From the IMG/VR virus record IMGVR_UViG_3300029915_000005: 64,000 nucleotides of DNA; one strand, written 5' to 3'. The translations under genes were made by a program, and so were the position numbers. Below are positions 3,001 to 59,254 of this stretch, in pieces (the stretch's first letter is position 1; every line of letters starts with the position of its first letter). The notes beneath the pieces were generated by a model that saw nothing but the letters and a program-made list of their open reading frames with translations, was not told the DNA's origin and ran no database searches. The DNA is from a virus.

Positions 3001-6000
3001 TAACATCAAATATAAATGCGATTATTAATAGCGTTATCATTATCGATCATGTTGATCCATCTGCAAACATATCAATACAAGGATCTTTTATAGTTTCAGA
3101 TTATTTCTTGCAAAATGGTTACGCAAATTTAATTGTTGCCACTAGCAATAATATATTAAATGGAAATATTATCACTTATAATCCTGCATGGAATTCAACT
3201 TCGATCTATACAAGCAAAAGTTTGCGAAGCAATTCTATTGCAGAAAGCAATATTTCATTATCAGATACTACTCGATATGTGGATAAAGATAACATTACTT
3301 GGGCTGAATATGAATTAATTGCTCCATATACTAATCAAATAACTTATCCAGATGTTGCTTTTCAATTACCAATTACGTCTGTTGCGTATGATGATATTAA
3401 TCAACTATTATGGTCTGGAAAACCTTCAGCTATAGGAAATAATGGATTAGTAGAACTTAGACAATTGACTGAAAATATATCTTCCACTGATATTTTGGTA
3501 TCTGTTATTGGTGGAAGTGTCTATGATATTGAAACTATTAGGCCAGATACTGCTCTTCTTGGATCAGCAGTAGTGTGCGCTAACGGATTTGCTGTAGCAA
3601 CAGCAACCAGTTCTAATGCTACTGCTAATATTAATAATATTGGTCAAATATATATTATCAAAAATAATACAAATGGATTATACCCAGAAATAACTCAAAT
3701 TCTTAGCGCAGACGCTGTTCCAGCGATATATTTAAATGGTGCAAATTTTGGAAAGAATTTAGCCATAAGCGATGATGGAAATTGGCTGTATGTAGTTATT
3801 GATAATTTTGATGGTACAGGACATGGGGGAATCAATGCGTATCAATTAAAAACTAACGCTAATGCTTCTTCATATACATTGGCAGAGCCTCCAAATAATA
3901 CATTAATTAAAGTTACTACACCAATCTTTAATGCTGATTCGTACAGCATTACTGTAACAGTGTCAGTTCCAAACGAAATACCAATTATATTAATACCTCA
4001 TATGGATTATTCTGTTAATCCTTTCGACCCAACTGATATTTTCTTATTTGGAAATCCAATTCCGAATATTGTGGGTACTACTGTTTCTGTCGAAGGTCTT
4101 TCTCAATATTATGCTTGGGTTGATACATTGGTAACTCCGTTGGGATCAAATACCAATTTCGGAGCGTCAATATCTTGTGATGCAACTGGAGAAGTAATAA
4201 CAGTTGGAGCACCTGATTATAATAATGGTGCAGTTATTATATACAGAAGAATTATTGAAAACTTATATAATCCGACAACTGGTGTATACACTCAAACATT
4301 TCCATCGCTAAATTCATTAAAATTTGAGTTATCTCAAATTTTGAACGCACCAAATTCATATGATTCTCAATTTGGTGCTTCTGTTGCTATCCAAAATAAT
4401 CAATTATTGGTGGGAAGTCCTAATAGCACAATAAATAATAAACTCAATAAAGGAGTTATATATTGCTATTCATTAGACACCCAAGTTCAAACTCAAAAAA
4501 ATGTACCAGTAGCAAATTTAACTTTTCCAATTTTACCTTTTAGAATTAATAATTGGATAACAACAAATACCTCTTTGGATATTTCATCATTACTAACAAA
4601 TATAAATTCATTATCTAATTATTCTGGAGTTACAGCGACTCTAATAAATTCAAATATTATATTGACTATAAATGAGACGTTGCATACTTCAGGTTTGACT
4701 CCAGCTTTAATTTTTTGGAATATAGATTCTCCATTATTTAATAATGGACCATTATTCAGTGAATTCACATTAACAAATACTTTATATTCAAATTCAATTA
4801 ACTCCACCAATTTTGGTCAAAATATAAAATGGATTGCATCTGACTTATTCGGAGAAATTGAAAATATTGGATTTAATCAAGTAAATACCCCTGATTCCAC
4901 TGATGGCACTTACTATGATGGCGGAAATACTAATTTCAATGAAACAACCAATCAATATTCTCAGAATTTAAAAATTTATCAAGTTTTGAAATCCAATCGA
5001 TCTTGGATACATTCAAATTCTGATTTGTTGCAACCAATTGTTGTTTTTACAAAAACAATATCTGGTATAAACTATCCATCTATAATATATGCCGCAGATA
5101 TTACAAATCTGTTTGTGATAGATAGTAACAATCCAACAAAATCAGTTGAAGTATTTAACAATGAAAATTTTGCTCATGGCTGGACTGTAGCAACCGCTCA
5201 AGAATTTCCAATTGATTCTACTAGCATCAGTAGAGCATGGATTTATGATTCTATTACAAATATTAAACTTTCTGATTTAGAAATAGTTGATTTAAATGCT
5301 GGAATTTTACCAGGAGCAATTGCCAGCGATCTGGATTTTATTTGTGATAATGATCCTGCTAATTATAATACACAAAAATGGAATCCTGGAACATTATATA
5401 ATATGGGAGATAGAGTTATATACAATAACCAATTGTATGCAGCATTATTTTCTGGAAAAAGTGGCAGCATATTTAATTCTTCTTTATGGGAATTATTGAG
5501 TCTTCAAAAAACATTTGAAGCTTTTGGTCCATCTTTATGGGGATCGCACCAAAAAGGCATGACATGGTTCAAAACTAATAATTTAAAAACTGTAAATGCA
5601 CAATTGGGAAATATATCTGAACGCGCTGCAAATTGGAATACTTGGTTTCCAAATTCAAATATTGAAGTTTATGAATGGGTTACAAGCTCTGTTCCTCCCA
5701 ATTCATATATATCCAATGACACAAATGGATTCATCATAGATATTAATTGCCCATATACATTTGATAATTCAACAAAAATATATGGCTTCTGGGTTTATAA
5801 TAAATCCATACCTGGTTCTTTGCATACAGTTTCTACCAATCAGCTTATATCATCATTATCTGATATTCAAAATTCTGGAATTCCCATGATTACTGCTATT
5901 GATAATAATGTTATATCTATTTGGAATATCAATCAATTTATTTCCAATAATACAGCAATTCTCCACATAGATTATGTTGTGGCAAATGGAAATAATCAAT

Positions 6001-9000
6001 TACATAATGAATTCGCCCTTATCAGCAATGATGGGAAAAAATCTTGGTATAAAACTCCAATCTATTCTAAATTCATTGATAGTTTGAGTGGCATGACTGA
6101 TTTAAATCAATTAGTACCAGATATTACTTTACCAATAAATCAGCAAACAGGAATATTAATAAATCCTCAACAATCTATTTTTGTTGATAGAATACAAGCA
6201 GCAAATATATATTTTACTGTAATAAATCAGAACTTATCAAATTTGGCAGTCGCATCATCATCAGTTATTTCTTTATTAAGTGCATCTGATCCTATTCCAA
6301 CTACTGGATTTTTGCAACAAATTCCAGACAGAGATGTTTTGAATGAATTAAATATTAATGATTATCCAGAACATTATAAAATTTTATTGACTACTGATGA
6401 TCTTCTATCTCCTGCTGGATGGTCAATAGTAGAAGCTATTAATGGAAATTGGGAATTTTTTAAAGTACAATTATATAATTTAACCAATAACTGGAAATAT
6501 GCTGATTGGTTTTCTTCAAACTATGTAAAGTCTACTCCAATGTTTGTTTTGAATAATATTGGAGAACTACCAAGCATAGTATACAATATAAATGATATTA
6601 TTCAGATTAATACCAATGGAAATAACAATAAAATAATTTATAAAGTTCTTTCCAATGAGTTAAATCCTGATATTTTGGAGTTAAATCCTATATTTATTCA
6701 AAACGGAACCATTCAATTTTTGTCGAATATTTATGATTTTGGATTTGACATTGACGCATTTGATACTACTCCTTTTGATGATGATCCATACATTGAACTT
6801 CGTATGATTACTCAAATACTAAATGATTATATTTTAACTGGAAGCAAAGATTTAACAACAGCAGCCGACGATGCATTTTATGCAGTGTTACAATATGTCA
6901 TTCATGAAAATAAAAATCTTGATTGGTTATTTAAAACTAGTTTTATTACTGTCAATTACATTAATAGAAATTTAAATATTCAAGGATCATATGAACCTGA
7001 TAATCAATCTATTATTGAAGACTTTGTAAATGAATCTACTCCTTTTCATACTCGTATCAGAGCATTTTATGATACTTACACTGCCAATGATTATGGAAAC
7101 ATTGGAACTGTAGATTTTGATTTGCCAGCACAGTATGATGAAAATTATGCCAATATTGTATTAAATTACAGCGATAATGTAAAACCAAACGGATTATTGC
7201 AATTAAGTCAATTTGGCCAAAATGTTGGAATGGCTGCTGATTTTGATTCTTTTTATATTACATCAACTGGCATTCCTATTATTTCTCAAAGTAATGATAG
7301 TATATCACAAGATTGGATTTTTGGATTTAAACAGCATGTGTATTCTGATTCTATTAATTTTAATACTGTTCCCAATAACATTGGGCCTATTGCTTCTGCA
7401 ATAGACGGTGTGCCATTCTACAGCGCAAATAGTGGAATTATGGAAACATTATACCAAACTGGAAACTTAATAAATTCACAAACATTTACAATTAATACTG
7501 TATGGCTAGATCAACAAAATAATATAGATACTGGTATAGGGCTACCAAATGAATTGGGAATTTGCCAATATCTATCAGATCCTTATTTATTATATAATAA
7601 AAATGTTTTAACACATAGTCCATTACTAGGATATGCTTGGGACGGAGTTCCTATATATGGTCCTTATGGATATGTAGAAAATAATGGAGACGGCGGAATT
7701 TTTATTAACACTAGCAGTTATAAGTTATTAACTACTCCTAGATTAGATAAAACTGGATTTTCAATTGTTAATGGTTTGCAATTGGCAAATTATAATATGC
7801 CAACTGGAGAATATATTGAAGATTATGAATATGTTCCTGGTTTTGGTAGTCTTGATCAAAATAATGGAAGATATTGCACAACACCAGAATATCCATTAGG
7901 AACATATGCATACTTTATTTCTGTCGATTCAATTTTTCTAAAACCAGTATATCCATATGTAATTGGGCCAACTTATTACGGAATTCCTTATGGATTAAAA
8001 TATTCATATGTTAATGGTATTAGTACACCAGTTTATCAAAATGGAAAAGTTGCTCTGCCTCAAATTAATATAGCAAATAGTGCCAATTTCATTAGAACAC
8101 CAGATGGTTCTGTTAGTTCTGATTCTTTAACTTTACAGAAACCAATTTATGCTCCTTGGAATGATAATTATATTAACAATAGTCAGTTGATTAGGCATCT
8201 CAATACCACAATAAGATTTGATAGAGTTAATAAAGAAATTGAATATTTAACTGCAAACACATCTTATCCAGCCAAAGAAGTATTATTTAATTCAAATTCT
8301 GGAATATTTATGCAATCGTTAGTTGCCAATGCCAACAGCGCAAATATTATAGATGCAAATATTTGGGGAGTAGCAAATTCAATGGCAATTGCAACTTCTA
8401 CAGCAATGAACCGAATAACAGCAGAATATTCGCCGTCTTCCAACATGTTTGCCAATCAAGCAAGATTACTAATGGACGGTATTGATTATTCTGGTGTAAT
8501 AGTAAAAAATGAAAATTTTGTTGATTCATATTCTGTTCCAACAGGTTCATTGTTTGATTTAGATGATTCTTTTGCAGCAAACACTTCATTAAATATTTCT
8601 TGGAGGCCAGGATTGATTACCAGTTCTGCATTATCCAGCGAAGTTTATAGATTTGGTAACTCATCTGGAGCATTCAATACCAAAACTAAACAATATATAT
8701 CTGCAAATTTAATGAGTGATGATATTTCTGCTCTGAGTATCAATTCTAGTAATTTTACATTGGAATTTTTCGTTAACTTCAGCAATTTAAATGCTGGCAA
8801 TATCATGGTTATGGTAGATACGAGAGATTATTACTATTCCCCATCTGGCTTAGTAATATATAAAAATAATGGCAATCTTTGTTTGGGATCAAATACTTCC
8901 ATGCCATTGTTATCATATAATTTACCACCATTACCACAAAATGAATGGCAATTTATTACTGCACAAGGATATACTACTAATATTAATGGAAATCTTTCTA

Positions 9001-9443
9001 GCAATCTATACATGTATTTGAATGGGCAATTAATAAATAGTATAATGCAATATTACAATTTTTCCGATTCAAATTTAACTTTAGGTGCTGATGTTATTGG
9101 AGGGAATGTATGTTGTGGATATATGGACGAAATCAGATTAACCAAAAATATTAATCGTTATGATTATAATGCTATAAATATTAATGTTCCATCCAGTCCA
9201 TTTCCAAGAGAGAATGATCCATATCTTAATATAATAGATACTCCTTTGTTGTTTGGATTTGAATCTTTTAATAATGAAGGTCCAGCGTCAATAACATTTA
9301 ATTCAATTAATTCGCAAACATTAATTAATGATTTATCATGGAATACTAAAACTCTAGAGCTTGTAAACTATAATGCTGGAAATGTTATTGTAGATTCTTC
9401 TCTAATAAACAATCAAAATTTTTCCGTAAAACTAAATCAATAG
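3..9443 (+). CDS. Giant virion structural protein (baseplate-wedge-like), 5'-truncated by the window; FG-GAP-like repeats, YHYH-like domain, C-terminal LamG/ConA-like domain
   Basis: The frame of the 204..9443 ORF is open back to position 3, so the true start is upstream. FGASISCD/FGASVAI and VGAP/VGSP repeats; HSPLLGYAWDGVPIYGPYG...LDQNNGRYCTTPEYPLGTYAYF; FTLEFFV...GYMDEIRLTK; sits in a structural cluster. Confidence 0.75.
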   Translation, partial: TGDNLSIYEIPNTTGSFIPATPTKLGLSAAYVPQIYVDNTYQIPRNVLQGHDGSITECFNDYRDNLLLDYEIRVYNNLKVNNQLLTDIIQTHVPQNGRFRNELAYDFSPYSPSEQLTISQRMFFEWAAQYNINYTNFYDANNMFTWNWSSSLDKFSDSQPLLGYWRGIYNWFYDSENPNTRPWEMLNISVKPAWWDSIYGPGPYTGGNLILWNDIANGIIRNPSGITTSSYGIRYYNTNSVLSVIPVDSYGILLNPNQSIIGTYNDSAAENSFVFGDSGPVETAWKRSSIYPFSKLRSKILQNPLFMLGTLWDTNNYLPTVELNQFRFQNGLLGSIKQVALNSVDNNGLAQINSILNYSIEYLRNEGKDPSLLRTAIDNTNVNLVYNLGGYADANNLTVLATPNNPNDVGAAELISNEDYSLFLNESSPVGVLTYSGIIITTAANGQGYQISGYDKGNPYFMIYPALSFVSGPTIGISPNLFTYPKQFDSNPSIVSYNTIFGTQQEVINFIAGYEQFLISNGLNFNTNPTQDKIDYAAAALQFVKWSLVNWNNSQNISLIINPAASIIEYDALTGTLHDLTDSTSSLLLDVNGNIIDGKYLDVFRDINTVTITHQGGGVFSCIRANIINYEHRFTINNISSFNDTIYDPITGNRQLRLKISGQKTANWTGSLDFPGFLICTNQVNLWNPNQDYLIGSIVQWKNSNYVATTNIIGSSTFQYSQFSLITTKFTNSILPNLSLKATDYSHAYDPNYRPYINDLVSLRNNTIGYIERDWLNSLNIDLSAQSNFYRGWIKEKGTLNSLNSYSRGSTPGLNTQVILNEEYAMKVGEYGSDSRTGYGEVSLPPTVNSQNPLVISFVSSPNSEDTTTTQIVPFNLYEKSINWTNDFIQNFGNLKATTSSFESAGPVIPSRLITQSYQNIPGFEKSDEDSLFFSNVQTLINSTSQNSIIKIAENNGSFWLETNQISAGPNQWDIITFSPAITNILSITQLNPQTLSFNLTSNINAIINSVIIIDHVDPSANISIQGSFIVSDYFLQNGYANLIVATSNNILNGNIITYNPAWNSTSIYTSKSLRSNSIAESNISLSDTTRYVDKDNITWAEYELIAPYTNQITYPDVAFQLPITSVAYDDINQLLWSGKPSAIGNNGLVELRQLTENISSTDILVSVIGGSVYDIETIRPDTALLGSAVVCANGFAVATATSSNATANINNIGQIYIIKNNTNGLYPEITQILSADAVPAIYLNGANFGKNLAISDDGNWLYVVIDNFDGTGHGGINAYQLKTNANASSYTLAEPPNNTLIKVTTPIFNADSYSITVTVSVPNEIPIILIPHMDYSVNPFDPTDIFLFGNPIPNIVGTTVSVEGLSQYYAWVDTLVTPLGSNTNFGASISCDATGEVITVGAPDYNNGAVIIYRRIIENLYNPTTGVYTQTFPSLNSLKFELSQILNAPNSYDSQFGASVAIQNNQLLVGSPNSTINNKLNKGVIYCYSLDTQVQTQKNVPVANLTFPILPFRINNWITTNTSLDISSLLTNINSLSNYSGVTATLINSNIILTINETLHTSGLTPALIFWNIDSPLFNNGPLFSEFTLTNTLYSNSINSTNFGQNIKWIASDLFGEIENIGFNQVNTPDSTDGTYYDGGNTNFNETTNQYSQNLKIYQVLKSNRSWIHSNSDLLQPIVVFTKTISGINYPSIIYAADITNLFVIDSNNPTKSVEVFNNENFAHGWTVATAQEFPIDSTSISRAWIYDSITNIKLSDLEIVDLNAGILPGAIASDLDFICDNDPANYNTQKWNPGTLYNMGDRVIYNNQLYAALFSGKSGSIFNSSLWELLSLQKTFEAFGPSLWGSHQKGMTWFKTNNLKTVNAQLGNISERAANWNTWFPNSNIEVYEWVTSSVPPNSYISNDTNGFIIDINCPYTFDNSTKIYGFWVYNKSIPGSLHTVSTNQLISSLSDIQNSGIPMITAIDNNVISIWNINQFISNNTAILHIDYVVANGNNQLHNEFALISNDGKKSWYKTPIYSKFIDSLSGMTDLNQLVPDITLPINQQTGILINPQQSIFVDRIQAANIYFTVINQNLSNLAVASSSVISLLSASDPIPTTGFLQQIPDRDVLNELNINDYPEHYKILLTTDDLLSPAGWSIVEAINGNWEFFKVQLYNLTNNWKYADWFSSNYVKSTPMFVLNNIGELPSIVYNINDIIQINTNGNNNKIIYKVLSNELNPDILELNPIFIQNGTIQFLSNIYDFGFDIDAFDTTPFDDDPYIELRMITQILNDYILTGSKDLTTAADDAFYAVLQYVIHENKNLDWLFKTSFITVNYINRNLNIQGSYEPDNQSIIEDFVNESTPFHTRIRAFYDTYTANDYGNIGTVDFDLPAQYDENYANIVLNYSDNVKPNGLLQLSQFGQNVGMAADFDSFYITSTGIPIISQSNDSISQDWIFGFKQHVYSDSINFNTVPNNIGPIASAIDGVPFYSANSGIMETLYQTGNLINSQTFTINTVWLDQQNNIDTGIGLPNELGICQYLSDPYLLYNKNVLTHSPLLGYAWDGVPIYGPYGYVENNGDGGIFINTSSYKLLTTPRLDKTGFSIVNGLQLANYNMPTGEYIEDYEYVPGFGSLDQNNGRYCTTPEYPLGTYAYFISVDSIFLKPVYPYVIGPTYYGIPYGLKYSYVNGISTPVYQNGKVALPQINIANSANFIRTPDGSVSSDSLTLQKPIYAPWNDNYINNSQLIRHLNTTIRFDRVNKEIEYLTANTSYPAKEVLFNSNSGIFMQSLVANANSANIIDANIWGVANSMAIATSTAMNRITAEYSPSSNMFANQARLLMDGIDYSGVIVKNENFVDSYSVPTGSLFDLDDSFAANTSLNISWRPGLITSSALSSEVYRFGNSSGAFNTKTKQYISANLMSDDISALSINSSNFTLEFFVNFSNLNAGNIMVMVDTRDYYYSPSGLVIYKNNGNLCLGSNTSMPLLSYNLPPLPQNEWQFITAQGYTTNINGNLSSNLYMYLNGQLINSIMQYYNFSDSNLTLGADVIGGNVCCGYMDEIRLTKNINRYDYNAININVPSSPFPRENDPYLNIIDTPLLFGFESFNNEGPASITFNSINSQTLINDLSWNTKTLELVNYNAGNVIVDSSLINNQNFSVKLNQ

Positions 9444-9451
9444 GAATAAAC

Positions 9452-10903
9452 ATGAGCACACCAGGATATATTCGGGCTGCTGGGGACCAAAATTATAATT
9501 TTGGAAATAATGATTTCACTGTGGAATTTTTTGCAAGTACTATAAGCAATAACTATCCTCAGACATTATTTGAAATTTCAAATAATGAATCTTTTGCAGC
9601 CAATAATTATAATCAAACTCGTTTTATAACAGCTATAGAAAATGGCAATATCAATTCTTATGCTTTACAAACTAATAACAATTCTTTATTATTTTCCATA
9701 AATGGTAATGAATTTTCTCCAAATGTTACTCACTTTATAAGTGCAGAAAGAAAGAACAATAAATTTTATCTGTTTTTGGATGGAGTTTCTCAAAGTCAAC
9801 CCGTTAATGCTGCTATTCCAATTCCTGCACAATATATTATAAATAACTCGAATAGTATGCAATTACCAAGAATAAACAGCTCAGCATTGATTACAATAGG
9901 TGCTGATAAAAATGGGGCAAATACTTTCATTGGAAGTTTTGGAGATTTTAGAGTAACCAATGGAATTGCGCGTCATGTAAGAGAATCACAAGTACAAAAC
10001 AAAATCACCAGTGAATTTACTGATATTGTCTTAGGAACTAGAGCAGAAGATATCAATATTGCTGGAGGAAATTTTATAGATAGTATATCAAGTCATTATC
10101 CAGAAGAATTGGTGCCAGGGCAAATGTTTGATGCTTTAAACATATCTGTGTATCAAAATTCAAATTGCGCAAATTTAAGTTCCAATATAGCTAATATTCA
10201 AGCAATAACAACAAATACACCAAATCCATCATTTAATGCAAATTCAGTATTGCTTGGTTTTAGAATATTTAAAGATACAATAGAGATTGGACCAATTGGA
10301 GAATATAATTTTAACACTGAAAATTCTCTAGGAATCTTTCCAGTTCCATGGTCGTCGATATCTTCTGATTCTGGAACTGTATCAATAAATGGAAATATTA
10401 TTGATTCTTCTCTATGGAATATACAAGCCAATAAATTATATTTATATGTTACTGCTCCATTAAATAGCAATATACAAATTATTGCAACTGGACCAACTTC
10501 GTATTATAGTATTGGTGCCAATGCCATAACCACGTTATCTAAAAATTTATATTCAACTGATTCTCTAATTTCAGCGAGTAATGTGGCTGGATTTATAACT
10601 CCAAACCCTTTAACAAACACCCGCGGAAAATTGTTTATTAATGGAGAATGTATAACTTATCTATATATTGATAGAATTGGAAATACTTTATCAGGATTAA
10701 GAAGAGGAGTTAATGGAACAGGAGTTCCAAATATATACATAGCCAATGCTAATATTCAAGTTATAAGTGCATCATATGATCGGGAACTTCCTGGCAATCC
10801 AGGAGAATTTATTTGGTATAATAATTCAAATTCAAATTTGGCTGCTACCAATTCTAATATTTCAAATTTTTTAATTAATCAAGGGACTATTCCTCCAGTA
10901 TAA
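9452..10903 (+). CDS. Virion structural protein with N-terminal LamG/ConA-like domain
   Basis: DFTVEFF...FIGSFGDFRVTNGIARH LamG-type pattern; PEELVPG and GECITY...LRRGVNGT segments typical of large-phage baseplate proteins. Confidence 0.6.
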   Translation: MSTPGYIRAAGDQNYNFGNNDFTVEFFASTISNNYPQTLFEISNNESFAANNYNQTRFITAIENGNINSYALQTNNNSLLFSINGNEFSPNVTHFISAERKNNKFYLFLDGVSQSQPVNAAIPIPAQYIINNSNSMQLPRINSSALITIGADKNGANTFIGSFGDFRVTNGIARHVRESQVQNKITSEFTDIVLGTRAEDINIAGGNFIDSISSHYPEELVPGQMFDALNISVYQNSNCANLSSNIANIQAITTNTPNPSFNANSVLLGFRIFKDTIEIGPIGEYNFNTENSLGIFPVPWSSISSDSGTVSINGNIIDSSLWNIQANKLYLYVTAPLNSNIQIIATGPTSYYSIGANAITTLSKNLYSTDSLISASNVAGFITPNPLTNTRGKLFINGECITYLYIDRIGNTLSGLRRGVNGTGVPNIYIANANIQVISASYDRELPGNPGEFIWYNNSNSNLAATNSNISNFLINQGTIPPV

Positions 10904-10911
10904 ATACATAT

Positions 10912-11046
10912 ATGAATATGAAACCTGATGAATTTCCAGCAATATCTGTTACTGAACATTTAAAAATTAAAGTAACTGAAAAAAATAGTAACTCATCAAT
11001 TATAACTGAAAAAGTTTGCCTTAACAAGAGAGTGAAAAATGAATAA
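10912..11046 (+). CDS. Small structural-module protein, 44 aa (MNMKPDEF...HLKIK...LNKRVKNE), not in the ORF track
   Basis: ATG 5 nt after TAAATA (10901-10906); HLKI resembles HVKI at the N-terminus of the next gene; stop overlaps the next start. Confidence 0.55.
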   Translation: MNMKPDEFPAISVTEHLKIKVTEKNSNSSIITEKVCLNKRVKNE

Positions 11047-16240: not shown

Positions 16241-16291
16241 TTCTTTTTTTGAAGAACCAAAGGTTTATTCTTTTTTTGTATAAATACTTAT

Positions 16292-16753
16292 ATGGAAATA
16301 GATATATTAGATACTGGTCATTGGATTGCCCCATGGAAATTTGATGTAAATAAATTTGTTGGATTTCAATATAGAATTACTCAAATCTCTACAAATAGAC
16401 AATATATCGGCAAAAAATTTTTTTATTCTATAACAAGAAAAATAGTCAAAAACAAAAAAAATAGAAAAAAAATAATTAAAGAATCAAATTGGAAAAACTA
16501 TTGCGGGTCGTGTAAGTGGCTTCTATCTGAAATAGAAAAGTGTGGAAAAGAAGATTTTATATTTCAAATAGAATCATTGTGTGAATCTCGATCAAATCTT
16601 GCATGGAGAGAAGTAGAACGATTAGTTAAAGAAAATGTGTTGAGAGAGAAATTACAAGATGGGAGTCCAAAGTACTTTAACGGAATCATTCCGCCAGTAA
16701 AATTTAAAATTTGTGAAGAAACCCAAAATGAAAAGGAATATAAAATTGATTAA
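16292..16753 (+). CDS. GIY-YIG family nuclease
   Basis: GFQYRIT...RQYIGKK...ESNWKNYCGS; TAAATA 5 nt upstream. Confidence 0.7.
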   Translation: MEIDILDTGHWIAPWKFDVNKFVGFQYRITQISTNRQYIGKKFFYSITRKIVKNKKNRKKIIKESNWKNYCGSCKWLLSEIEKCGKEDFIFQIESLCESRSNLAWREVERLVKENVLREKLQDGSPKYFNGIIPPVKFKICEETQNEKEYKID

Positions 16754-24669: not shown

Positions 24670-24691
24670 GAATTAAATTATAAATATAAGT

Positions 24692-25210
24692 ATGAAGATT
24701 AATGAAGTCATTATCGATAATGAAAATGGATTAGGAGGAGTTTCATATAATCAAGAAATTGATTATCTTGGTCTTAGAGTGCTAATGTATCCATCCACAT
24801 TTTTAAGCCTAGCATATTATAGAAGTCGAAACGATTTAGGAAATGTTGACTATATAAAAAATTATATTAAAAATGGTGGGACTATTGGCGCTCCATTCCT
24901 TCAAATAAGTATTCCTAATAGATGGGAGAATGATGATTATTCTATTCCATCCATAGTTATTGGTCATGAAGGAAGAAATAGAATGATGGCACTCGATGAA
25001 CTTCAAGATGAAGGATTAGAACCTGATGTGCCAGTTGAAACTCATTTATTGTTTTATAAATATAGAGCCAGGCATTTAAAACCAGAATGGATAATACAAT
25101 TAAATAAACAACTTTATAATCAAAATACAGAATATGAATATCATTCTGGAGAAGTGGCTTATACAGATAGCCCTATAACCAAAGGGCCATTGTTTAAGGT
25201 TGTAAATTAG
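24692..25210 (+). CDS. ParB/Srx-like domain protein (leader MKINEV)
   Basis: APFLQI...VIGHEGRNRMMAL resembles the ParB/Srx (D/E)GxxR motif; TAAATA 5 nt upstream. Confidence 0.45.
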   Translation: MKINEVIIDNENGLGGVSYNQEIDYLGLRVLMYPSTFLSLAYYRSRNDLGNVDYIKNYIKNGGTIGAPFLQISIPNRWENDDYSIPSIVIGHEGRNRMMALDELQDEGLEPDVPVETHLLFYKYRARHLKPEWIIQLNKQLYNQNTEYEYHSGEVAYTDSPITKGPLFKVVN

Positions 25211-26100
25211 ATATAAAAGATTTTACTAAATTATCAATATTTTCTTTATTCCAATATGGAATTATTAATAATGGAATATTATTAATATTACAATAATTAT
25301 ATTTTATATAATCATTTTTCTTAGTAGATTCAAAATATTTTTGAAAAATAGGTTCATAATGTTGTTTTCCTTGGTATTCAATTAATCCTATAATTTTATT
25401 ATTTTTAATAATCCCTATATCAAAAGGTAATGGATATTTATTTTTGCATAATGTAATTCTTATTTGTTCATCAAATTCTATTGGTAATGATTCCAACGTT
25501 TTTATAATTTTTAATTCTCCAGAACTTCTTTTACATTTTGGACATTTTCTTCCCATTAAGTGTTTATTTGGGCTTTGCCAAAAAGAGCCATGCTTCTTAC
25601 ATATTATTTCAACTTTTTGGCGTGAAGTTAAATAATTTACATTATCATAAATAAATTCATTTTTGTGTATGATAATAGCTTTTGTTATAAATTCTTTTGT
25701 ATTGCTTGTTTTTGTTTTAGAAATACTGTTAAATCCACATTGTGGACAACCAATTTTTTGTAAATGCACGCCGGGGGCTTGTTTAAAAATTCCATGTTCC
25801 TTACATTTTATATCCATTTTCTTTTTGGCGTTGTAATAAGTTTTAGAAATATAAGAATATTTAAAATTATGAATAATATTTGCAGAGTTAACAAATTCTG
25901 TAAATGTTCTATTAAATCCACAGCATTTTGGGCAACCATTTCCTGATAAATGTGCATGAGAAGATTGCAAAAATTCTCCATGAATTGGGCAAATAATTAT
26001 TAATTTGTTTTTTGCATTAATGTATATAGATTTACTATAATTATATTTAAAATTATGAATTTGATTTTGATATAAAATATGCAGTAGTATAAATAGTCAT
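25194..26100 (-). pseudogene. Zn-repeat (CxxHG...CxxC) + Vsr/PD-(D/E)XK-type endonuclease, frameshifted near its 5' end
   Basis: GGAGG RBS and ATG at 26100 (MTIYTTAYFISKSNS*); the homologous frame resumes at about 26060 (IHNFKYNYSKSIY...CPIHGEFLQ) and runs into the track ORF 25194..25970; C-terminal LPFD...IEYQGKQHY. Confidence 0.7.
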
Positions 26101-26170
26101 AGCTGAATGACCTCCAGTGGTCTTTAGAGCGAGTAGATGTCGAAATCATCGTGACTCGCATTTGTATTTA
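26088..26170 (+). ncRNA. Two-hairpin structured element, copy 1 (candidate antisense sRNA)
   Basis: TATAAATA, CTGAATGACC-loop-GGTCTTTAG, GCGAGT-A-GATG-loop-CATC-GTG-ACTCGC, opposing TATTTA; same layout at 46540 and 59093. Confidence 0.6.
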
Positions 26171-26193
26171 TATGAAAAAGAATAAATATAAGT

Positions 26194-29100
26194 ATGAGAT
26201 TACAAAATTTGTTTGAAGAAAAAATAAAACAAACAACTGCAACAATTTTTAGCGGTGGGTTTCACCCATTCCTTCCACAACATTTATATTGCTGGGAATA
26301 TTTGATTTCAAAATTTCCAAATGCACATCATTATATAGCTTCCACTAATAATATAAGTGAGCGACCATTTTCATTTAAGCAAAAACAATTTTTAGCAGTG
26401 CAAGCTGGCATACCTAAAAATGGATTTGTACAAGTAACAAGTCCTTATAAAGCATTGGAGATAACTAGTAAATATGATTCAAACAATACTATTGTTATAT
26501 TTGGTTTAAGTGAAAAAGATGCAGAAAGACTCGGACCAACGATAAAGAAAGATGGGACCCTGTCATTTTTACTACCATATCCTGGGCCTTCTACTCCACT
26601 AGAAACTTTGAATAAACATGCATATTATGTAATTATTCCTGTCCATAAGTATAGAGTTTTGGGACAAGAGATAACCTCTGCTTCTCAAATAAGAAAGATG
26701 TATACTTCTTCTAATGAAAGCGATAGATATACTATTATTCGAGAATTATATCCAAATTCTATGAAAGTTGGAGAGATTAAAAAAATATTTGATCAAGTTT
26801 TGCTTGCTCCAATAAATGAAGATATATATGACGTGATTTATAGACCAAAAAACGTTTATAATATAGAAGCGAATGAATATCCAGAATTTATGTTAGATGG
26901 GGATGTTCAACGTATGATATATGATTTGCACCAACAGGAAGAGATTGATGCTGGCTCTGATATTTGGGATAGAATGGATAGTGTCTGGTATAAGTTACAA
27001 AATGTTTCTATAAAAAAATTAGATAACATAAATGATTTAGATGAAGATGATGACCAATATTCTGATGAAATAACTCCTTTTCCTCCAATAGTATTAACAA
27101 AAAGAGGGGAAATATTAGATGGATTTCATAGGACTATTTCTGCTAAAATTCGTGGTGATAAAACAATTAGAGCATATGTTCCTTGCAAAAAACCAATTAA
27201 TGAATCTAAAGCTGGATTAGAATATAAATTAAAACTTGGAAACAAAAAATCTGTAATAGATTCAAGTGGCTGGCTATTTCCAGATAAAACTTTTGTTCCA
27301 CTTGTTCCAGGAACAACTCACGAAACAATGGCTACAAGATTGGGATATAATGGTTATGAAGGAATATATAAAATTGGATGTGTAAGAGTTTCCCGTCCAA
27401 TTTATGCTCCGGGTAAAATTTATATAGAAACAATACAAAAATTGAGTGATAGTACTTATAAGCTAATTATGAATATTATTCATAGAATAAAAGTGGATGT
27501 TAAAATAGATGTTACTGTTGGATCAGGTAATGGATATTTTCAACATTATAAATGGGATTTCAAAGATAGACAATTGCATAAAACAAATTTTTATGAGTCA
27601 GTTATAAATGAAGAACCTGATTTTAATTATACAAAATTTAATAATAGAGATGAAGAGCTTTCAAGATTAAAATTTGATTATTCAGTAATACCCAGTAATA
27701 ATGACGGAATTGGTGGATTTTGGATAATTGTAAATAACTCCTCTGGTGTTAGTGTGGCAGATATTGATTTGGTGGAAGTTAATTCAAAAACATTAGTAAT
27801 TTCTTTTATTAGAATTAATTTAAAATGGAAAGGTACTGGACTTGGGCAAATTCTGTATGACAAAGCGATTAAAAAAGCCAAACAATTAGGATATAAATAT
27901 TTTCGATCAGATACTGATAGATCAGCGGCTGCTGAAAAAGCGTGGAAAAGATTGGCAGCAAGATATACAGTTAAGTACAAAGAAGGCAAAGAATTTAATA
28001 AAGGGTATTATGAAATTGATCTAAGTAAAGTTCAATTAAAAGAATCATTTGATTATTCCTATAGAGCTAAATTATTTCAACTTAGACCACAAATGATTAA
28101 AGCTGCACAAAAAATATATGATAAATGGGAAGGAGGAGAAGTTGGTTTGTGTGATAGTATTGCAGAGTCAATTTCTGATTGTGTATTAAAAAATATAAAG
28201 AATATTGATTCATACGTGGTTGGCCATAAAAATCCAAAATTGCATGAACTTCATTTTTGGGTAAGAGTAGATTTTAATAATGGAGAAAAATATTATGATA
28301 TTGACTTACCATTTGGAAAATATGAAAGATATGATAATAAAAAACATTATTTTGTAAAAATACCAAATGTAAAATTTCAATTAAATGATTTATTAATATA
28401 TCAATCATCTTTAAATTATAATAAAGCTCCTTGGGAAATAAGAAATAGTTATACTCCACATAAATCAGATAGTTATTTTATCAGCGAATCTATTGCACAA
28501 GAAGTTATAAAAGTTGGTAAAAGCAATGATGAAATTATAAAATTAATCAAAGAAGCTACAAAATATAAATTATATGTTCCTACATTTACAGCGCAAAAAG
28601 AATTTGGTTGGATATTACAAACAGGAAATAAAGGTAAAATAAGTAAAATGGCTATGATGTATGTTAACAACATGCCTGTCGCTTGGATCATTTATTGGAA
28701 ACATGGAAGTTTTATGTCTGACTCTAATCCAAGAACAGAAAATGACAAATATTGGAGATTTACTAAAAAAGAATTTAGAAATATAGGTTATTATCATAAA
28801 TTAAAAAAAGCTTTATGGAATATAATTAATGAGGCACCAGATTTTGGCTACAAAAGTTTTAATGATAGAGATGAAGATATAAGCAAATTAAAGTGGGAAA
28901 TTGATAAAAGACCATTTAAAGATTGGAATAGTGATGAGGAACACCTAGGAATAATAATTAGGGCAAGAAATCCAGAAACTAATGAAGTAGAAGGTTTTAT
29001 AACTTCTAATGAGATAACCAAGAAAACATTAAAAATTTCAAGAAGTCAATTAACATCTAATCATAATTGGCAATCGACTGGTCTTGGACAAATGTTATAT

Positions 29101-37033: not shown

Positions 37034-37624
37034 ATGAATTTAAATGAATTATACAAACCGAAAATATCTAAAGATATTGATAATGAAATAAATTATCATT
37101 TCAATTATGGCGCTGGAAATACTCAGCAACTAAGAAATCGTCTTAAAAAATTTGGATGGATATATTTAGATGAAGGAGTTTATAGTTCAGTTTGGGGAAA
37201 TGTTAAAAAATCTTATATTCTTAAAATAAATAAAGTTCCTGATAGAGCATTCGATCATTATGTTAATATAATTAAGAAAAGTAAAAATCCTCATTTTCCA
37301 AAAATAAGTGATATGAGAGAAATAGCTATTGGACCTAAAATTTATTGTGCTTATTTAATTGAAAAATTATTTAAAATTCCTGGCCATTTTGTTGGTGATA
37401 ATTACTCAACTTTTTTCAATACAATTATTAATGCGGATCCAAAATATTCAATTTCTAAACTGTTTAATAACCATATTCCTACCATATTTAAAAAACAACC
37501 AAAACTAGTTGATGCATTATGCATAGTTGGTTCTGAACACAATAACTATTTTATTGATATGCATTCTGGAAATATTATGCAAAGAAAAGATGGAACAATT
37601 GTTATAACTGATCCTTATGCATAA
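37034..37624 (+). CDS. T7 gp0.7-like protein kinase, paralogue B (leader MNLNEL)
   Basis: EGVYSSVW, YILKIN, FPKI, YLIEKL, DMHSGNIM, ITDP. Confidence 0.75.
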   Translation: MNLNELYKPKISKDIDNEINYHFNYGAGNTQQLRNRLKKFGWIYLDEGVYSSVWGNVKKSYILKINKVPDRAFDHYVNIIKKSKNPHFPKISDMREIAIGPKIYCAYLIEKLFKIPGHFVGDNYSTFFNTIINADPKYSISKLFNNHIPTIFKKQPKLVDALCIVGSEHNNYFIDMHSGNIMQRKDGTIVITDPYA

Positions 37625-38640: not shown

Positions 38641-39231
38641 TCAGCTTGCATAAGGATCAGTTATAACAATTGTTCCGTCTTTTCTCTGCATAATATTGCC
38701 GCCATGCATGTCATTGGAAATATATGGATTTTTGATATTGTGTTTAAATTTTCCAATAATTCTGAGTGCTGTAACTAATTCTGGATTTTGTTTTAAATAA
38801 TCAAGTTGCGTATGAGATGTATTAAAAAATGTTAGTGATGAATATGGACAATCTATTATTTCACTAAAAACATTAGCTAAATGTTTCATTTCAGAACGTA
38901 CATCATCTAATTTCTCAATAAGATATATGTAATATCGACCACCATTAACTTCTATAAATTTCAAATCACTTATTTTTGGAAAATGTTTATTGTTATATTT
39001 CTTTATTAAAGATACATATTGTGCATACGCAGTATCTTGTCTATCATTAACTTTTAACACATAAGATTTTTTTGGATTTGAATATACTGTACTATAATAA
39101 CCAGCCCCTAGAAGAGTCCAACCCAATTTTTTTAATTTGCCTTCTATGGTATATTTATCAGTACTGCGATCAAACACAATTTTAGAAAATTTGGCTGGTA
39201 TTCTCGTTTTTGAATATTCGTCTAGTTTCAT
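38641..39231 (-). CDS. T7 gp0.7-like protein kinase, paralogue A' (leader MKLDEY)
   Basis: GAGYYSTVY, YVLKVN, FPKI, YLIEKL, DMHGGNIM, ITDP. Confidence 0.75.
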   Translation of the reverse strand: MKLDEYSKTRIPAKFSKIVFDRSTDKYTIEGKLKKLGWTLLGAGYYSTVYSNPKKSYVLKVNDRQDTAYAQYVSLIKKYNNKHFPKISDLKFIEVNGGRYYIYLIEKLDDVRSEMKHLANVFSEIIDCPYSSLTFFNTSHTQLDYLKQNPELVTALRIIGKFKHNIKNPYISNDMHGGNIMQRKDGTIVITDPYAS

Positions 39232-39841
39232 TATAACCCCCAATGTATGGATCAGTTATTACAATTGTTCCATCTTTTCTTTGCATAAAATTTTCGTCAT
39301 GCAAATCAATCCTAAAAAATGGTTTAGATTCATAGCTAACTATACGCAATGCTTTAATTAATTTTGGTTGTTTTTTGAATATTTCAGGAATTGCTCCATA
39401 CTCTTCAATTAGTGATTCTAAAGGTTTTTCTTCCATATTAAGATTAATTACAAAATTGAACATAGATGCATAATCTTCAGCAGTAGCTCTATTTGGAAAT
39501 TCCTCTAATTTTTCAATTAAATATGCATAATAACTTCTTCCTGTAATAAATATTTGTCTTCTATCACTAATTTTTGGAAAATGTGGATTTCTACTTCCTT
39601 TAATAACAGAAACATAATGATCAAATCCAGGATCTGGTATTTTATTTATTTTAAGGATATATGATTTTTTGGGATTACTCCAAACCGAACTATAAACACC
39701 GGATCCTTCCAATTTCCAACCAAATTTTTCAAGTTGATTTTTTAAATATGGAATATTAAGAGGATTATTGAAAAGATGATTCGTTATAGCATAAGTTGCG
39801 CTCTTAGATATTTTCGGTTTGTAGAATTCATTTATAAGCAT
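39182..39841 (-). CDS. T7 gp0.7-like protein kinase, paralogue B' (leader MLINEF)
   Basis: GSGVYSSVW, YILKIN, DLHDENFM, ITDP; minus-strand TAAATA (39847-39852) 5 nt before the ATG. Confidence 0.75.
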   Translation of the reverse strand: MLINEFYKPKISKSATYAITNHLFNNPLNIPYLKNQLEKFGWKLEGSGVYSSVWSNPKKSYILKINKIPDPGFDHYVSVIKGSRNPHFPKISDRRQIFITGRSYYAYLIEKLEEFPNRATAEDYASMFNFVINLNMEEKPLESLIEEYGAIPEIFKKQPKLIKALRIVSYESKPFFRIDLHDENFMQRKDGTIVITDPYIGGYNETRRIFKNENTSQIF

Positions 39842-40200: not shown

Positions 40201-41349
40201 ATGCGGGCAAATACCACAGCGATCTTTATAAAAAAATCAAATATTGCTCATAATAGTAAATTTGGTTATCAAAAATCAGTATATATTAATAATAATACTA
40301 ATATATGCGTTATTTGCCCAATTCACGGAGATTTATTGGTTAATCCAGCAAATCATATGAAAGGTCATGACTGTTTTGAATGTTCTAAAAATAATCGTCC
40401 CAGAAAATCAGTAGACGAATTTATTACTTTTTGTAATTCTTTATATAACAATAAATATGATTATTCTAAAGTTACAGAAACATATTCTATTATTAGAAAT
40501 AAAGTATGTATAATATGCCTCATTCATGGAGAATTTTGGATTACTGCTGATAGTCATAAACATGGCCATGGTTGTATTCAATGTTCTAATAAACTTGGTG
40601 GAATTTTACGGCTAAAAACACTAGAACAATTTATTAAATATGCAAATAAAATTCACAATTTTAGATATGATTATTCAAAATCTATATATCTCGGTGATAA
40701 AGCTAATATAGAAATTATTTGTAAAACTCATGGAAGTTTCTGGCAAACTCCTAATAATCATTTAGCTGGAGAAAATTGCTTAGAGTGTGGGAGAGAATCT
40801 ACTAGTGATAAATTGAGAGGGAATATAGTTGATATTATCAATAGAGCAAATATAGTACATAATTTCAGATATCAGTATAATTTAATCAATGAATATAAAA
40901 AATTCAGTCAAAAAGTTAAAATAATATGTCCTGATCATGGAGTCTTTGTTCAAACAATTGGCAGTCATTTATCTGGAAATGGGTGCCAAAATTGTAAATT
41001 ATCTAATGGGGAATTATTGATTAGAAATTATTTAAAGACTAATAATATTAGCTTTAATTCGCAAATAAAATTTAATGATTGCAAGAATATAAAAAGTTTA
41101 CCATTTGATTTTGGTTTAAGAAATAAAGATAACAAATTAATAGCACTTATAGAATTTCAAGGTGGCCAGCATTACAAATCTATAGAATTGTTTGGTGGAG
41201 AAATAACATTTAAAAATCAACAAAGAAATGATCAAATAAAATTTGATTTTTGTTTTAATAATAAAATTCCTTTGTTATGTATTCCTTATTGGAAGCAAAA
41301 GACTATTAATAAAATACTCGACGAATTTATTCTAACTTTAAAATTTTAA
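40201..41349 (+). CDS. Zn-repeat + Vsr/PD-(D/E)XK-type free-standing endonuclease
   Basis: Four ICxxHG...HxxGxxCxxC repeats; LPFDF...IEFQGGQHY...IPLLCIPYW. Confidence 0.75.
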   Translation: MRANTTAIFIKKSNIAHNSKFGYQKSVYINNNTNICVICPIHGDLLVNPANHMKGHDCFECSKNNRPRKSVDEFITFCNSLYNNKYDYSKVTETYSIIRNKVCIICLIHGEFWITADSHKHGHGCIQCSNKLGGILRLKTLEQFIKYANKIHNFRYDYSKSIYLGDKANIEIICKTHGSFWQTPNNHLAGENCLECGRESTSDKLRGNIVDIINRANIVHNFRYQYNLINEYKKFSQKVKIICPDHGVFVQTIGSHLSGNGCQNCKLSNGELLIRNYLKTNNISFNSQIKFNDCKNIKSLPFDFGLRNKDNKLIALIEFQGGQHYKSIELFGGEITFKNQQRNDQIKFDFCFNNKIPLLCIPYWKQKTINKILDEFILTLKF

Positions 41350-44922: not shown

Positions 44923-46443
44923 TTGAATCAGGAAAAATTACCGCAGCATGATATGTGGCAAGAACAACTTGATTCAAATGGATTGAGTAAATGGGCAGCA
45001 TATCTTCCATCAGTGAGTAATTATTTCAGTGCATTTGTTGGACGACAAAGAGCTATGCAAAAGCACTTTGTCGATCCAGCAAGAATTCCTATTAATTTTG
45101 AAAATGGCATTGAAGGTCTTAATTGGACTAATAAGAATTTAGGATATTTTTATTATAAACCAAATCTTTTTAGTGCTGGTAATGCAAATTTAGATATTAA
45201 TAAATATGATTCTAAAGAATTAATGTTGCGAGATAGAGATAAAAAACAGAGTTTTGTTCTGGCAGATTCTGGTGGATTCCAAATAGCAAAGGGTAGTTGG
45301 GAAGCAGATTGGAAGGACATAAACTGCCCCAAAGCTAAAGAAAAGAGAGAGAAAGTTTTATCTTGGATGGAAGCTTATGCAGATTATGGTATTATTTTAG
45401 ATATTCCTTCATGGACTTGCTCTTCAGAAAAAAGCAGAAAAGCAACAGGAATTAATTCTATTAATGATGCAACTGTTGCAACTTTGATTAATAATGAGTA
45501 TTTTATAAAAAATAGGACTGGAGAATGCAAACTACTTAATGTTCTTCAAGGAAGTAATCATACTGAATCTGATAATTGGTATGGTATTATGAAGAAATTT
45601 TGCGATCCAAAACAATATAGCAATCATTTTGATGGTTGGTCGTTCGCAAGTCAAAATGCTTGGGAACCGCATTTGGCATTGAAAAGATTGGTTGATTGCC
45701 GATTTGATGGATTATTAGAACCTGGAGTTCATGATTGGGTGCATTTTCTTGGAAATTCTGATTTAGAATGGTCTTTGTTGCTGTCAGATATTCAAAGATC
45801 AATTAGAAAATATCACAATCCCAAATTAACAATTAGTTATGATTGTGCCACGCCGTTTTTAACGGCTGGATTTGGCGGAATATATTATGATACTATAGGT
45901 AAAGATAAAGATCATTGGACTTTTTCAGTTGCTAAAGGAATCGAAGGTAAAAAATATTCAACTGACTATCGATCATTAAAAGAGGTTGGAGAACAAGATG
46001 GTTATTATTCTAAGTTTGAAGATAGCCCAATTAGTGCAAGACTTAAAATTAGTGATGTGTGTTTTCACGGACCAAAATCACTAAATAAATCAGGAAAAGT
46101 ATCTAAAAATAGTTGGGACTCATTTTCATATGCTTTAATTCAAGCACACAATGTTTGGGAGCATATTGAAACTATACATTGTGCAAATAAAAAATATGAT
46201 AGTGGTATTTTTCCAGCAGTAATGACTACTTTAACCAGTAATAAAAAAAATGGGTCCATTCTTTATTATGATAAATTATTTTGTAGTGATATCATAGACA
46301 GTATTTTTCAAACAAGTCATTATGATGAAGCTATGAAATTAATAGATGATTATGATCGATATTGGATGTGCTTTCGTGGTCGTGGGAAGTGCGGATTAAA
46401 ATCTAAAAATTCACAAACTACTTTTAATAAGATATTTTATTAA
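44923..46443 (+). CDS. TGT-fold transglycosylase, DpdA-like (7-deazaguanine DNA insertion)
   Basis: LADSGGFQI, ILDIP, LNVLQG, HFLG, SYD motifs of TGT-family enzymes; between replication genes and folE/queE; GGAG RBS with TTG start. Confidence 0.75.
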   Translation: MNQEKLPQHDMWQEQLDSNGLSKWAAYLPSVSNYFSAFVGRQRAMQKHFVDPARIPINFENGIEGLNWTNKNLGYFYYKPNLFSAGNANLDINKYDSKELMLRDRDKKQSFVLADSGGFQIAKGSWEADWKDINCPKAKEKREKVLSWMEAYADYGIILDIPSWTCSSEKSRKATGINSINDATVATLINNEYFIKNRTGECKLLNVLQGSNHTESDNWYGIMKKFCDPKQYSNHFDGWSFASQNAWEPHLALKRLVDCRFDGLLEPGVHDWVHFLGNSDLEWSLLLSDIQRSIRKYHNPKLTISYDCATPFLTAGFGGIYYDTIGKDKDHWTFSVAKGIEGKKYSTDYRSLKEVGEQDGYYSKFEDSPISARLKISDVCFHGPKSLNKSGKVSKNSWDSFSYALIQAHNVWEHIETIHCANKKYDSGIFPAVMTTLTSNKKNGSILYYDKLFCSDIIDSIFQTSHYDEAMKLIDDYDRYWMCFRGRGKCGLKSKNSQTTFNKIFY

Positions 46444-46552
46444 AAAATTTCTTAATACGTTTTTCTATTTTATTTTTATTACAATAAGAAATGATTAATA
46501 TTGGAATTTTATTGGCTCTTTCTATGAAATATTCCGTTGTATAAATAAACAT
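46424..46552 (-). pseudogene. Miniature (42-aa) internally deleted Zn-repeat endonuclease
   Basis: MFIYTTEYFIERANKI joined to PILIISYCNKNKIEKRIKKFF, i.e. the N- and C-termini of the 25194/40201 family. Confidence 0.65.
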
Positions 46553-46619
46553 ATGCTGATGTTCTCCTATCGAACGTTAGAGTCAGTAGATGTTCTCGCA
46601 TCGTGGCTGGCATTATTTA
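46540..46619 (+). ncRNA. Two-hairpin structured element, copy 2
   Basis: TATAAATA; CTGATGTTC-tcctatc-GAACGTTAG; GTCAGT-A-GATG-ttctcg-CATC-GTG-GCTGGC; TATTTA. Confidence 0.6.
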
Positions 46620-46672
46620 TGCTTGACTTTGATAAGTTTCTTTGATAATATTAGATATAAGGAAAAATAATA

Positions 46673-47347: not shown

Positions 47348-47411
47348 ATGCTTGACTGATAGCAAAGACTATCTGGTGGAGGCAATCACATTAAATCGTG
47401 ATGTCCTAAAT

Positions 47412-47440
47412 AAAAGGGAATGAGTAACACATTCCCTTTT
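47412..47440. terminator. Putative terminator
   Basis: aaaagggaatg-agtaaca-cattcccttttt-type inverted repeat after folE. Confidence 0.55.
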
Positions 47441-47459
47441 AATTGGAGAAAATATAGTT

Positions 47460-47624
47460 ATGTATCATACTTTGTATTATTTGTTTTCTAAACCAGCCAA
47501 AGGAGTAAGTTTATGGACTGCATTTTGGTGTCGTTTAAAAGGGCATTCGTGTGGAGTTATTTTGTTTACTAGCAATTTTGAACCAGATATGCGTTGTAAA
47601 AATTGCAATGATGATTTAGGATAA
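47460..47624 (+). CDS. Small Cys/His protein, 54 aa (WCRLKGH...CKNC), not in the ORF track
   Basis: GGAG RBS; fills the intergenic gap. Confidence 0.5.
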   Translation: MYHTLYYLFSKPAKGVSLWTAFWCRLKGHSCGVILFTSNFEPDMRCKNCNDDLG

Positions 47625-47627
47625 ATT

Positions 47628-47987: not shown

Positions 47988-47988
47988 T

Positions 47989-58761: not shown

Positions 58762-58800
58762 AATAAAAAATCCACTCTAAATTAGAGTGGATTTTTTATT
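58762..58800. terminator. Bidirectional terminator
   Basis: aataaaaaatccactctaa-a-ttagagtggattttttatt perfect palindrome. Confidence 0.75.
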
Positions 58801-59170: not shown

Positions 59171-59254
59171 TCTTGACAAAATATAATTTATGCTCTAATA
59201 TTAAAGATATACAAGTTTAGAAAAGATAAATAAACACAGGAGAAACAAAACAAT

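Follow-up and report, generated by a model that had tools for sequence, protein, structure and literature searches.

We analyzed a 64,000-nucleotide stretch of viral DNA (IMG/VR record IMGVR_UViG_3300029915_000005; hereafter the window) that has a G+C content of 31% and carries nearly all of its genes on the + strand. Among its products are baseplate-hub proteins, several proteins resembling homing endonucleases, a QueE-like enzyme, and a DNA polymerase of the T4 type, which shares 40-45% identity with the polymerases of jumbo phages of the T4 superfamily, e.g., Atu_ph07, Phosso, and 121Q; a megablast search with the whole window returned no cultured-phage relative at the DNA level, and no tRNAs were found in the window. 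At three sites, where a minus-strand open reading frame (ORF) of the homing endonuclease type begins, lies a module of ~85 bp made of two hairpins between two late-promoter boxes that face each other. The fold under selection is antisense to the leader of the nuclease mRNA. Such a cassette at the head of homing endonuclease genes (HEGs) is widespread in uncultured T4-like phages and apparently undescribed.

Two independent patterns, one for the left half of the module and one for hairpin 2, each matched exactly three + strand sites in the window, and the chance expectation for either pattern was 0.00 matches in 100 shuffles. A covariance model (R1), built from 46 distinct copies with the promoter boxes excluded, matched the same sites (copy 1: 26101-26160, E = 4.9e-9; copy 2: 46554-46612, E = 1.9e-9; copy 3: 59107-59163, E = 3.1e-11; Table 1), and the three two-hairpin copies reported in a first-pass annotation of this DNA are thus present as described. 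Stem sequences vary among the three copies, with pairing kept in each. The predicted fold is more stable on the + strand than on the minus strand in copy 1 (-21.7 vs. -16.9 kcal/mol), copy 2 (-21.2 vs. -7.6 kcal/mol), and copy 3 (-19.2 vs. -14.1 kcal/mol). In copy 2, the outer stem of hairpin 2 contains two U-G pairs that correspond to C-A mismatches on the opposite strand. The loop of hairpin 1 carries the complement of the ribosome-binding site, as had been claimed; in copy 1 it contains CCUCC, the Shine-Dalgarno complement. In the formula first written for hairpin 2, the R before the inner stem pairs with the Y of GYG, and two bulged G flank that pair. The convergent late boxes hold in so far as facing boxes stand at fixed distances from the hairpins, but a perfect minus-strand TATAAATA occurs only in copy 1. 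A small ORF from the ATG in CATATGCTG (copies 2 and 3) was considered and rejected, the ATG being missing in copy 1 and in most members of the family.

The left-half pattern matched 76 loci in IMG/VR, practically all of which also had hairpin 2 and TATTTA, neither of which is in the pattern. Model R1 also found copies that the pattern missed, and a scan of JGI metagenomes added 79 further loci, nearly all confirmed by the model, so that 141 distinct cores are known in total from IMG/VR and JGI metagenome contigs. Copy number ranged from 1 to 14 in IMG/VR genomes, with 14 in a 360-kb phage genome and seven in one of 236 kb. In 596 Gb of bacterial and archaeal genomes there were seven pattern matches, none of which passed the model, as expected of chance hits. 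The covariance model and Rfam search proposed in the first-pass annotation yielded no match to a described family: Rfam 15 had none in the window at gathering thresholds, and at E <= 1 it reported tRNAs only, in seven element-bearing loci. Among cultured phages, blastn of one element had no match, and the model found none in T4, Atu_ph07, 121Q, Phosso, and the jumbo Vibrio phage 2.275.O, or in Synechococcus phages S-SRM01, MC09, S-N03, and B23. The search method is valid because the same method found the 1-14 copies in IMG/VR genomes. The sole cultured-phage copy found is in Pseudoalteromonas phage vB_Psh_XG4 (PP712099, 56143-56206, minus strand; locus L246, 1440-1503). This copy is divergent, with UACAG for UUAGA and an antisense side without a TAAATA box, and the phage is a possible entry point for laboratory work.

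RNAalifold and explicit pair counts agreed on the consensus structure. Hairpin 1 has eight pairs on an invariant CUG/UAG base that includes a G-U pair; in hairpin 2, six outer and four inner pairs are separated by one covarying R-Y pair with a bulged G before it and another after it. The R-Y pair, formed by the R before the inner stem and the Y of GYG, occurs as G-C, A-U, and G-U, and never as A-C. Some nucleotides are more strictly conserved than base pairing alone would demand, GCUG, UUAGA, both bulged G, and the A that follows hairpin 2 being invariant, and CUCC in the hairpin-1 loop is the complement of the ribosome site. In the 46 pattern-selected copies, 98.3% of the cells were paired, and 222 were double-change cells, against ~58 in shuffles and 10-23 with partners slid. 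To counter ascertainment bias, we set up a second, protein-selected sample from the alignment of one GIY-YIG nuclease family combined with a box-free model. Its 52 copies had 99.7% of cells paired and 243 double changes, so that covariation was strong in the larger alignments too.

The same counts identify the strand on which the fold is selected. G-U cells outnumbered non-standard cells by 108 to 3 in the 52 protein-selected copies, and 71 metagenome copies had 145 G-U cells and 2 A-C. Summed RNAfold energy was -865 for the folded strand and -630 for its complement, and the sense fold was the weaker one in 45 of 46 copies. Because G-U pairs become A-C mismatches on the other strand, these counts, together with the energies, show that the fold has been selected on the strand antisense to the nuclease mRNA, which bears out what was first proposed from the three window copies alone.

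TAAATA boxes face each other across the fold, ~80 bp apart, and each stands ~5-6 nt away from the base of a hairpin. In 42 of the 52 protein-selected copies TAAATA lies <=24 nt upstream of hairpin 1 (background: 0.7% per window of this kind), its end being 5-8 nt from the first paired base; on the other side, TATTTA, the minus-strand box, starts 3-6 nt after hairpin 2 in 49 of the 52. The box upstream of hairpin 1 (the antisense box) overlaps the first HEG codons, and it holds its distance to hairpin 1 whether these codons read M-x-I-Y, M-Y-L, or M-x-x-I-Y. A box conserved in different reading frames is a DNA-level signal and not a protein motif. We accordingly rejected M-x-I-Y as a protein motif, since the box is kept in other frames and an element-free paralogue of the copy-1 nuclease lacks M-x-I-Y. 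Late transcripts of T4 begin ~6 nt after TATAAATA; by this spacing rule both RNAs would start flush with a hairpin. Homologues of gp55, the T4 late sigma factor, were found in all four near-complete carrier genomes (E from 7e-26 to 5e-4), and none was found among the 40 window ORFs scanned. The window also has TATAAATA just upstream of several + strand genes. A sigma-70-like site follows copies 2 and 3, not copy 1, and is outside the conserved core.

The module is tied to nuclease genes and moves with them. In one GIY-YIG HEG family it stands immediately before the start codon at 56 of 80 loci, always antisense, and other copies head HNH, Zn-finger, and NUMOD-type ORFs. The ORFs that start from CAT at the pattern loci likewise comprise several GIY-YIG groups as well as HNH, Zn-finger, and NUMOD-bearing proteins, all beginning with M-x-I-Y, in agreement with the earlier claim that unrelated nuclease families share the element. 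The claim that the unit is portable also held. We collected 80 loci with relatives (95-100% identical) of the gene downstream of one cassette: two have the element and 78 are empty. At locus L082 (IMG/VR 3300027759_004671), the insert (1926-2486) consists of precisely the nuclease gene and the element, its end lying 1 nt past the minus-strand box. An insert of this composition, with related sites empty, indicates that the module belongs to the mobile DNA rather than being a leader already resident at the site. When the DUF2201 neighbor of copy 3 was used as the query for empty sites, relatives were only ~40% identical and had other gene neighbors. As a separate observation, a degenerate duplication of the target intergenic region flanks the L082 cassette (1905-1930 and 2483-2505), reading AATATTAAGTTTTAATAGG at one end and GGAATTAAGTTTTAATGG at the opposite end; the altered duplicate overlaps the C-terminus of the nuclease and probably destroys the cleavage site.

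The nucleases of the window are less complete than they first seemed (Table 1). An HNH-type nuclease does stand at copy 3, but that ORF, although uninterrupted, is short and spans positions 22-93 of the 343-position phrog_655 profile, and of the other two the one at copy 2 is a remnant of the copy-1 nuclease family and the one at copy 1 is frameshifted after codon 15, a 258-aa ORF (25194-25970) continuing in another frame. Near AAATTCATAAT (25970-26100), the copy-1 gene has a few bases fewer than its paralogue at 40201-41349 (+), and the frameshift could be a pseudogene mutation, a sequencing error, or recoding. This paralogue is full-length (382 aa), has neither the element nor the I-Y codons, and begins 16 nt past the stop of the upstream gene. 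Its start, MRANTTAIFIKKSN (MRANTT), compares with MTIYTTAYFISKSN (MTIYTT) in copy 1, and homology begins at codon 5; the I-Y codons are therefore part of the element and not of the protein family.

Table 1 Features of the three module copies and their nuclease ORFs in the window (antisense boxes and late boxes are putative)
Feature	Position	Strand	Remarks
Copy 1 antisense-RNA late box, TATAAATA	26088-26095	+	minus-strand reading gives nuclease codons 2-5 (x-I-Y-T)
Copy 1 nuclease start codon (+ strand CAT)	26098-26100	-	MTIYTTAYFISKSNS, then stop
Copy 1 hairpin 1	26103-26127	+	invariant CUG/UAG base with G-U pair
Copy 1 hairpin 2	26129-26159	+	6 bp, bulged G, A-U pair, bulged G, 4-bp GAUG/CAUC
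Copy 1 nuclease-side late box, TATTTATA	26165-26172	-	perfect minus-strand TATAAATA
Copy 1 nuclease, Zn-finger homing-endonuclease family	25194-26100	-	phrog_559, 3.8e-52; DUF4379
Copy 2 antisense-RNA box, TATAAATA	46540-46547	+	
Copy 2 nuclease start codon (+ strand CAT)	46550-46552	-	
Copy 2 hairpin 1	46556-46580	+	
Copy 2 hairpin 2	46582-46611	+	outer stem GUCAGU/GCUGGC
Copy 2 minus-strand box (TATTTATG in + letters)	46614-46621	-	reads CATAAATA
Copy 2 remnant ORF, 42 aa, MFIYTTEYFIERANK...	46424-46552	-	copy-1 nuclease family; overlaps end of upstream + gene
Copy 3 antisense-RNA box, TATAAATA	59093-59100	+	
Copy 3 nuclease start codon (+ strand CAT)	59103-59105	-	
Copy 3 hairpin 1	59109-59130	+	
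Copy 3 hairpin 2	59132-59162	+	AUUGGU/ACCAAU, G-C middle pair, GGUG/CACC
Copy 3 minus-strand box (TATTTATC in + letters)	59165-59172	-	reads GATAAATA
Copy 3 nuclease, HNH-type homing-endonuclease ORF, 107 aa, MSIY...	58782-59105	-	phrog_655, 1.4e-20

Several other features of the window were recorded. The sequence TATAAATA (or AATAAATA), followed after exactly 5 nt by ATG, precedes + strand genes at 10899-10914, 16279-16294, 24679-24694, and 26181-26196, the last being the own late box of the gene after copy 1 (26194); with T4 spacing, the late mRNAs of such genes would be leaderless or nearly so. The sigma-70-like promoter TTGAC(T/A)-N17-TAATAT lies directly after copies 2 (46623-46651) and 3 (59173-59201), facing the downstream + gene, and similar sites follow IMG/VR copies L022, L032, L040, and L065, an association of hairpin and early promoter that is like the PeSL cassettes discussed below. 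Copy 2 and its gutted nuclease are located within a probable 7-deazaguanine DNA-modification cluster (44923-49243) that includes the QueE-like radical SAM enzyme (phrog_2076) and, judged by eye only, DpdA-type transglycosylase- and GTP cyclohydrolase I-like neighbors. Three paralogous ORFs, at 37034-37624 (+), 38641-39231 (-), and 39182-39841 (-), belong to the T7 gp0.7-like protein kinase family (phrog_15752), two of them being on the rarely used minus strand. A single ORF of 3025 aa occupies 366-9443.

Control by a facing antisense transcript has precedents. In IS10/Tn10 (RNA-OUT/RNA-IN) and P22 sar, promoters stand face to face tens of bp apart, and a short, stably folded countertranscript, with its recognition sequence in a loop, complements the ribosome-binding region of a mobile-element or toxic-gene mRNA. 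The module is like them at the sequence level in that its TAAATA boxes face each other at the 5' end of the target and its selected antisense fold has the ribosome-site complement in a loop. It shares no sequence or structural homology with them, and it differs in having two hairpins, T4-type late boxes on both sides, unrelated nuclease families, and up to 14 copies per genome. In the T4-like cyanophage S-PM2, the antisense RNA CfrI has been detected experimentally (Millard et al. 2010, cited in PMC2984593; annotated in AJ630128). It starts within the first codons of the F-CphI homing endonuclease gene (PMC2984593), runs back over the leader, extends into psbA, and is ~200-225 nt long. We rejected CfrI as a homologue because the best E of the model was 1.1, at the locus and elsewhere in the 30 kb searched; it is an analogue and not a relative.

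Two other phage systems share some of these features. In the T-even HEGs I-TevI, mobE, and segB, RNA hairpins occlude the ribosome site (PMC3014915). As proposed for the module, these HEGs have late promoters and a leader structure that involves the Shine-Dalgarno sequence and limits nuclease synthesis, but there the sense mRNA folds and the late promoter is inside the hairpin, whereas here the opposite strand folds and the HEG box lies 3-6 nt outside hairpin 2. PeSL elements are small, repeated, mobile cassettes of promoter and stem-loop in T4-type genomes, for which modular shuffling has been proposed; their promoters are early and sigma-70-like, their stem-loop is a simple terminator, and they are not tied to nucleases (PMC2839356, PMC4122927). 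The module is also small, repeated, and mobile, and also combines promoter and stem-loop, but it differs in its late boxes, two covarying hairpins, conserved bulges, and overlap with the HEG start codon.

We favor, as the most economical, a reading in which the module would be a portable cis-antisense brake on the nuclease, comparable to IS10 RNA-OUT, P22 sar, and S-PM2 CfrI, and consider the odds of its being correct to be about even. The module, traveling with a free-standing HEG, would provide a T4-type late box (TAAATA) that drives the HEG, with the mRNA starting at the base of hairpin 2, and a second late box, on the opposite strand of HEG codons 2-5, that fires back over the leader. The short RNA predicted from this second box would start 1-2 nt before hairpin 1, beside the start codon, and would consist of hairpin 1 with its anti-Shine-Dalgarno loop, one A, hairpin 2 with its two bulged G, and a U-rich tail, being fully complementary to the entire 5' untranslated region of the HEG. 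Pairing between this RNA and the leader, probably begun loop to loop, may block ribosome binding, expose the duplex to RNase III, or both, and a potentially harmful nuclease would be held at a low level. The facing promoters, ~80 bp apart, may add transcriptional interference. We infer from sequence the firing of both boxes, the end point of the antisense RNA, and its repression of the nuclease.

A broader version of this proposal is tentative, and we rate it as possible but short of an even chance. The module would be a self-contained antisense "governor" and represent a new family of structured small RNAs in phages, one that four or more unrelated HEG families have captured and that allows these HEGs to insert in either orientation. 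Because the stems have diverged while the fold has been kept, each RNA would silence its own gene only, and the invariant bulged-G hairpin would be the point at which a shared factor of the phage or its host, for example RNase III or an RNA chaperone, takes hold.

The way the boxes decay is suggestive with regard to the antisense brake. The antisense box was kept in 24 of 25 co-oriented cassettes and in 15 of 24 inverted ones (Fisher's exact test: P = 0.005), and the HEG-side box was missing in 6 of 37 co-oriented and 1 of 54 inverted cassettes (P = 0.017), statistics that ignore kinship among the copies, the box-less ones representing ~4-5 lineages. In co-oriented cassettes nothing else could transcribe the antisense strand, whereas in inverted ones operon read-through could. 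Each box thus seems to decay where read-through from a neighbor could supply the same transcript, as expected if both transcripts matter.

Besides this kinship, several observations weigh against an antisense brake. The fold is kept in the 10 of 52 protein-selected copies that have single-base variants of the antisense box (TAAGTA or TATATA). Two of the three window HEGs are broken and their modules are intact, which fits recent decay and also fits a function independent of the nuclease. Both boxes are of the late type, obscuring any timing logic. A simple terminator scan, with a scanner that cannot handle bulged stems, called no terminator at the three copies. The 9 nt past hairpin 2 are ~67% T, but they double as the complement of the other promoter, and for that reason the U-rich tail is not independent evidence of termination. 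Finally, the Shine-Dalgarno sequence is partly paired in the sense leader (mean unpaired probability = 0.41, with 40% of copies below 0.3), and the sense leader may exert some control in cis.

This last observation fits the view that the sense mRNA leader is the working molecule, with a stabilizing hairpin at its 5' end and a second hairpin masking the Shine-Dalgarno sequence, and that the antisense appearance is incidental. The minus-strand late box does set the mRNA 5' end flush with the complement of hairpin 2, and occlusion of the ribosome site by RNA hairpins, a known means by which T-even phages prevent translation of homing endonucleases, is documented for I-TevI, mobE, and segB (PMC3014915). 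We nevertheless regard this view as very unlikely: wobble pairs are nearly all on the other strand, including the invariant G-U pair of hairpin 1 that would be A-C in the mRNA, the sense fold is almost always the weaker, and with the late box upstream of both hairpins the T-even trick of a late transcript lacking one hairpin arm cannot work. The folded strand may instead serve some other purpose, as the binding site of an RNase or of a protein from phage or host, as a processing signal, or as a single-stranded DNA structure in recombination or homing. The two bulged G and the invariant GCUG and UUAGA suggest specific recognition, and the fold persists where the antisense box has decayed and beside dead nucleases. 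Bulges and conserved loops are, however, typical of antisense RNAs too (CopA, RNA-OUT), no candidate partner was identified, the nuclease is an unlikely ligand given that the HEG families differ, and promoters set tightly at both hairpin bases argue for RNA rather than DNA, so that we consider such a purpose quite unlikely. For the guide or recognition structure of a mobile unit that the first-pass annotation had offered as an alternative, we found no support.

The module might also be a mobile promoter/terminator cassette that protects the genes of the phage receiving it: the + box would restart late transcription of the gene past an inverted HEG, hairpin 2 with its U-tract would end or insulate transcription, and the repeats would aid PeSL-like shuffling. 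The three copies in the window are all inverted within a co-directional row of genes, as are roughly one half to two thirds of the other copies, and in the inverted cases the + gene begins 10-70 nt past the module. The L082 insert comes between two genes whose spacing in empty sites is 18 nt, and the downstream gene has no other late box before it. The site that follows copies 2 and 3 gives a PeSL-like order of terminator and early promoter, and modules outlast broken HEGs. Yet the protein-selected sample was evenly divided between co-oriented and inverted cassettes (23 each), and in 23 of its 46 copies no gene follows the antisense box, with box and fold kept; the antisense box is therefore not there to serve a neighbor. 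It is, moreover, preferentially lost in inverted cassettes, where it would be most needed, and a strong terminator right after its own promoter would be self-defeating. Hairpin 1, its anti-Shine-Dalgarno loop, and the invariant bulged G are left unaccounted for. We thus think it unlikely that the module exists for the benefit of host-phage genes. It is plausible that, as a side role next to that of an antisense brake, the module donates a late promoter to the gene downstream of an inverted insertion, which could explain why the modules of copies 1 and 2 have outlived their nucleases.

Homing endonucleases, the main selfish elements of large phages, influence both how these phages compete and how mosaic their genomes become. 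To our knowledge, restraint of HEGs is established for only a few T-even cases, all with sense-strand hairpins. The covariance model provides a signature for finding mobile nuclease cassettes in metagenomes, and the system is clean and testable since synonymous codon changes can remove the antisense promoter. If the antisense reading is true, the module would join the very small number of structured regulatory RNAs known from T4-like phages, and a portable antisense RNA common to unrelated nucleases would constitute a general, previously unrecognized layer of control.

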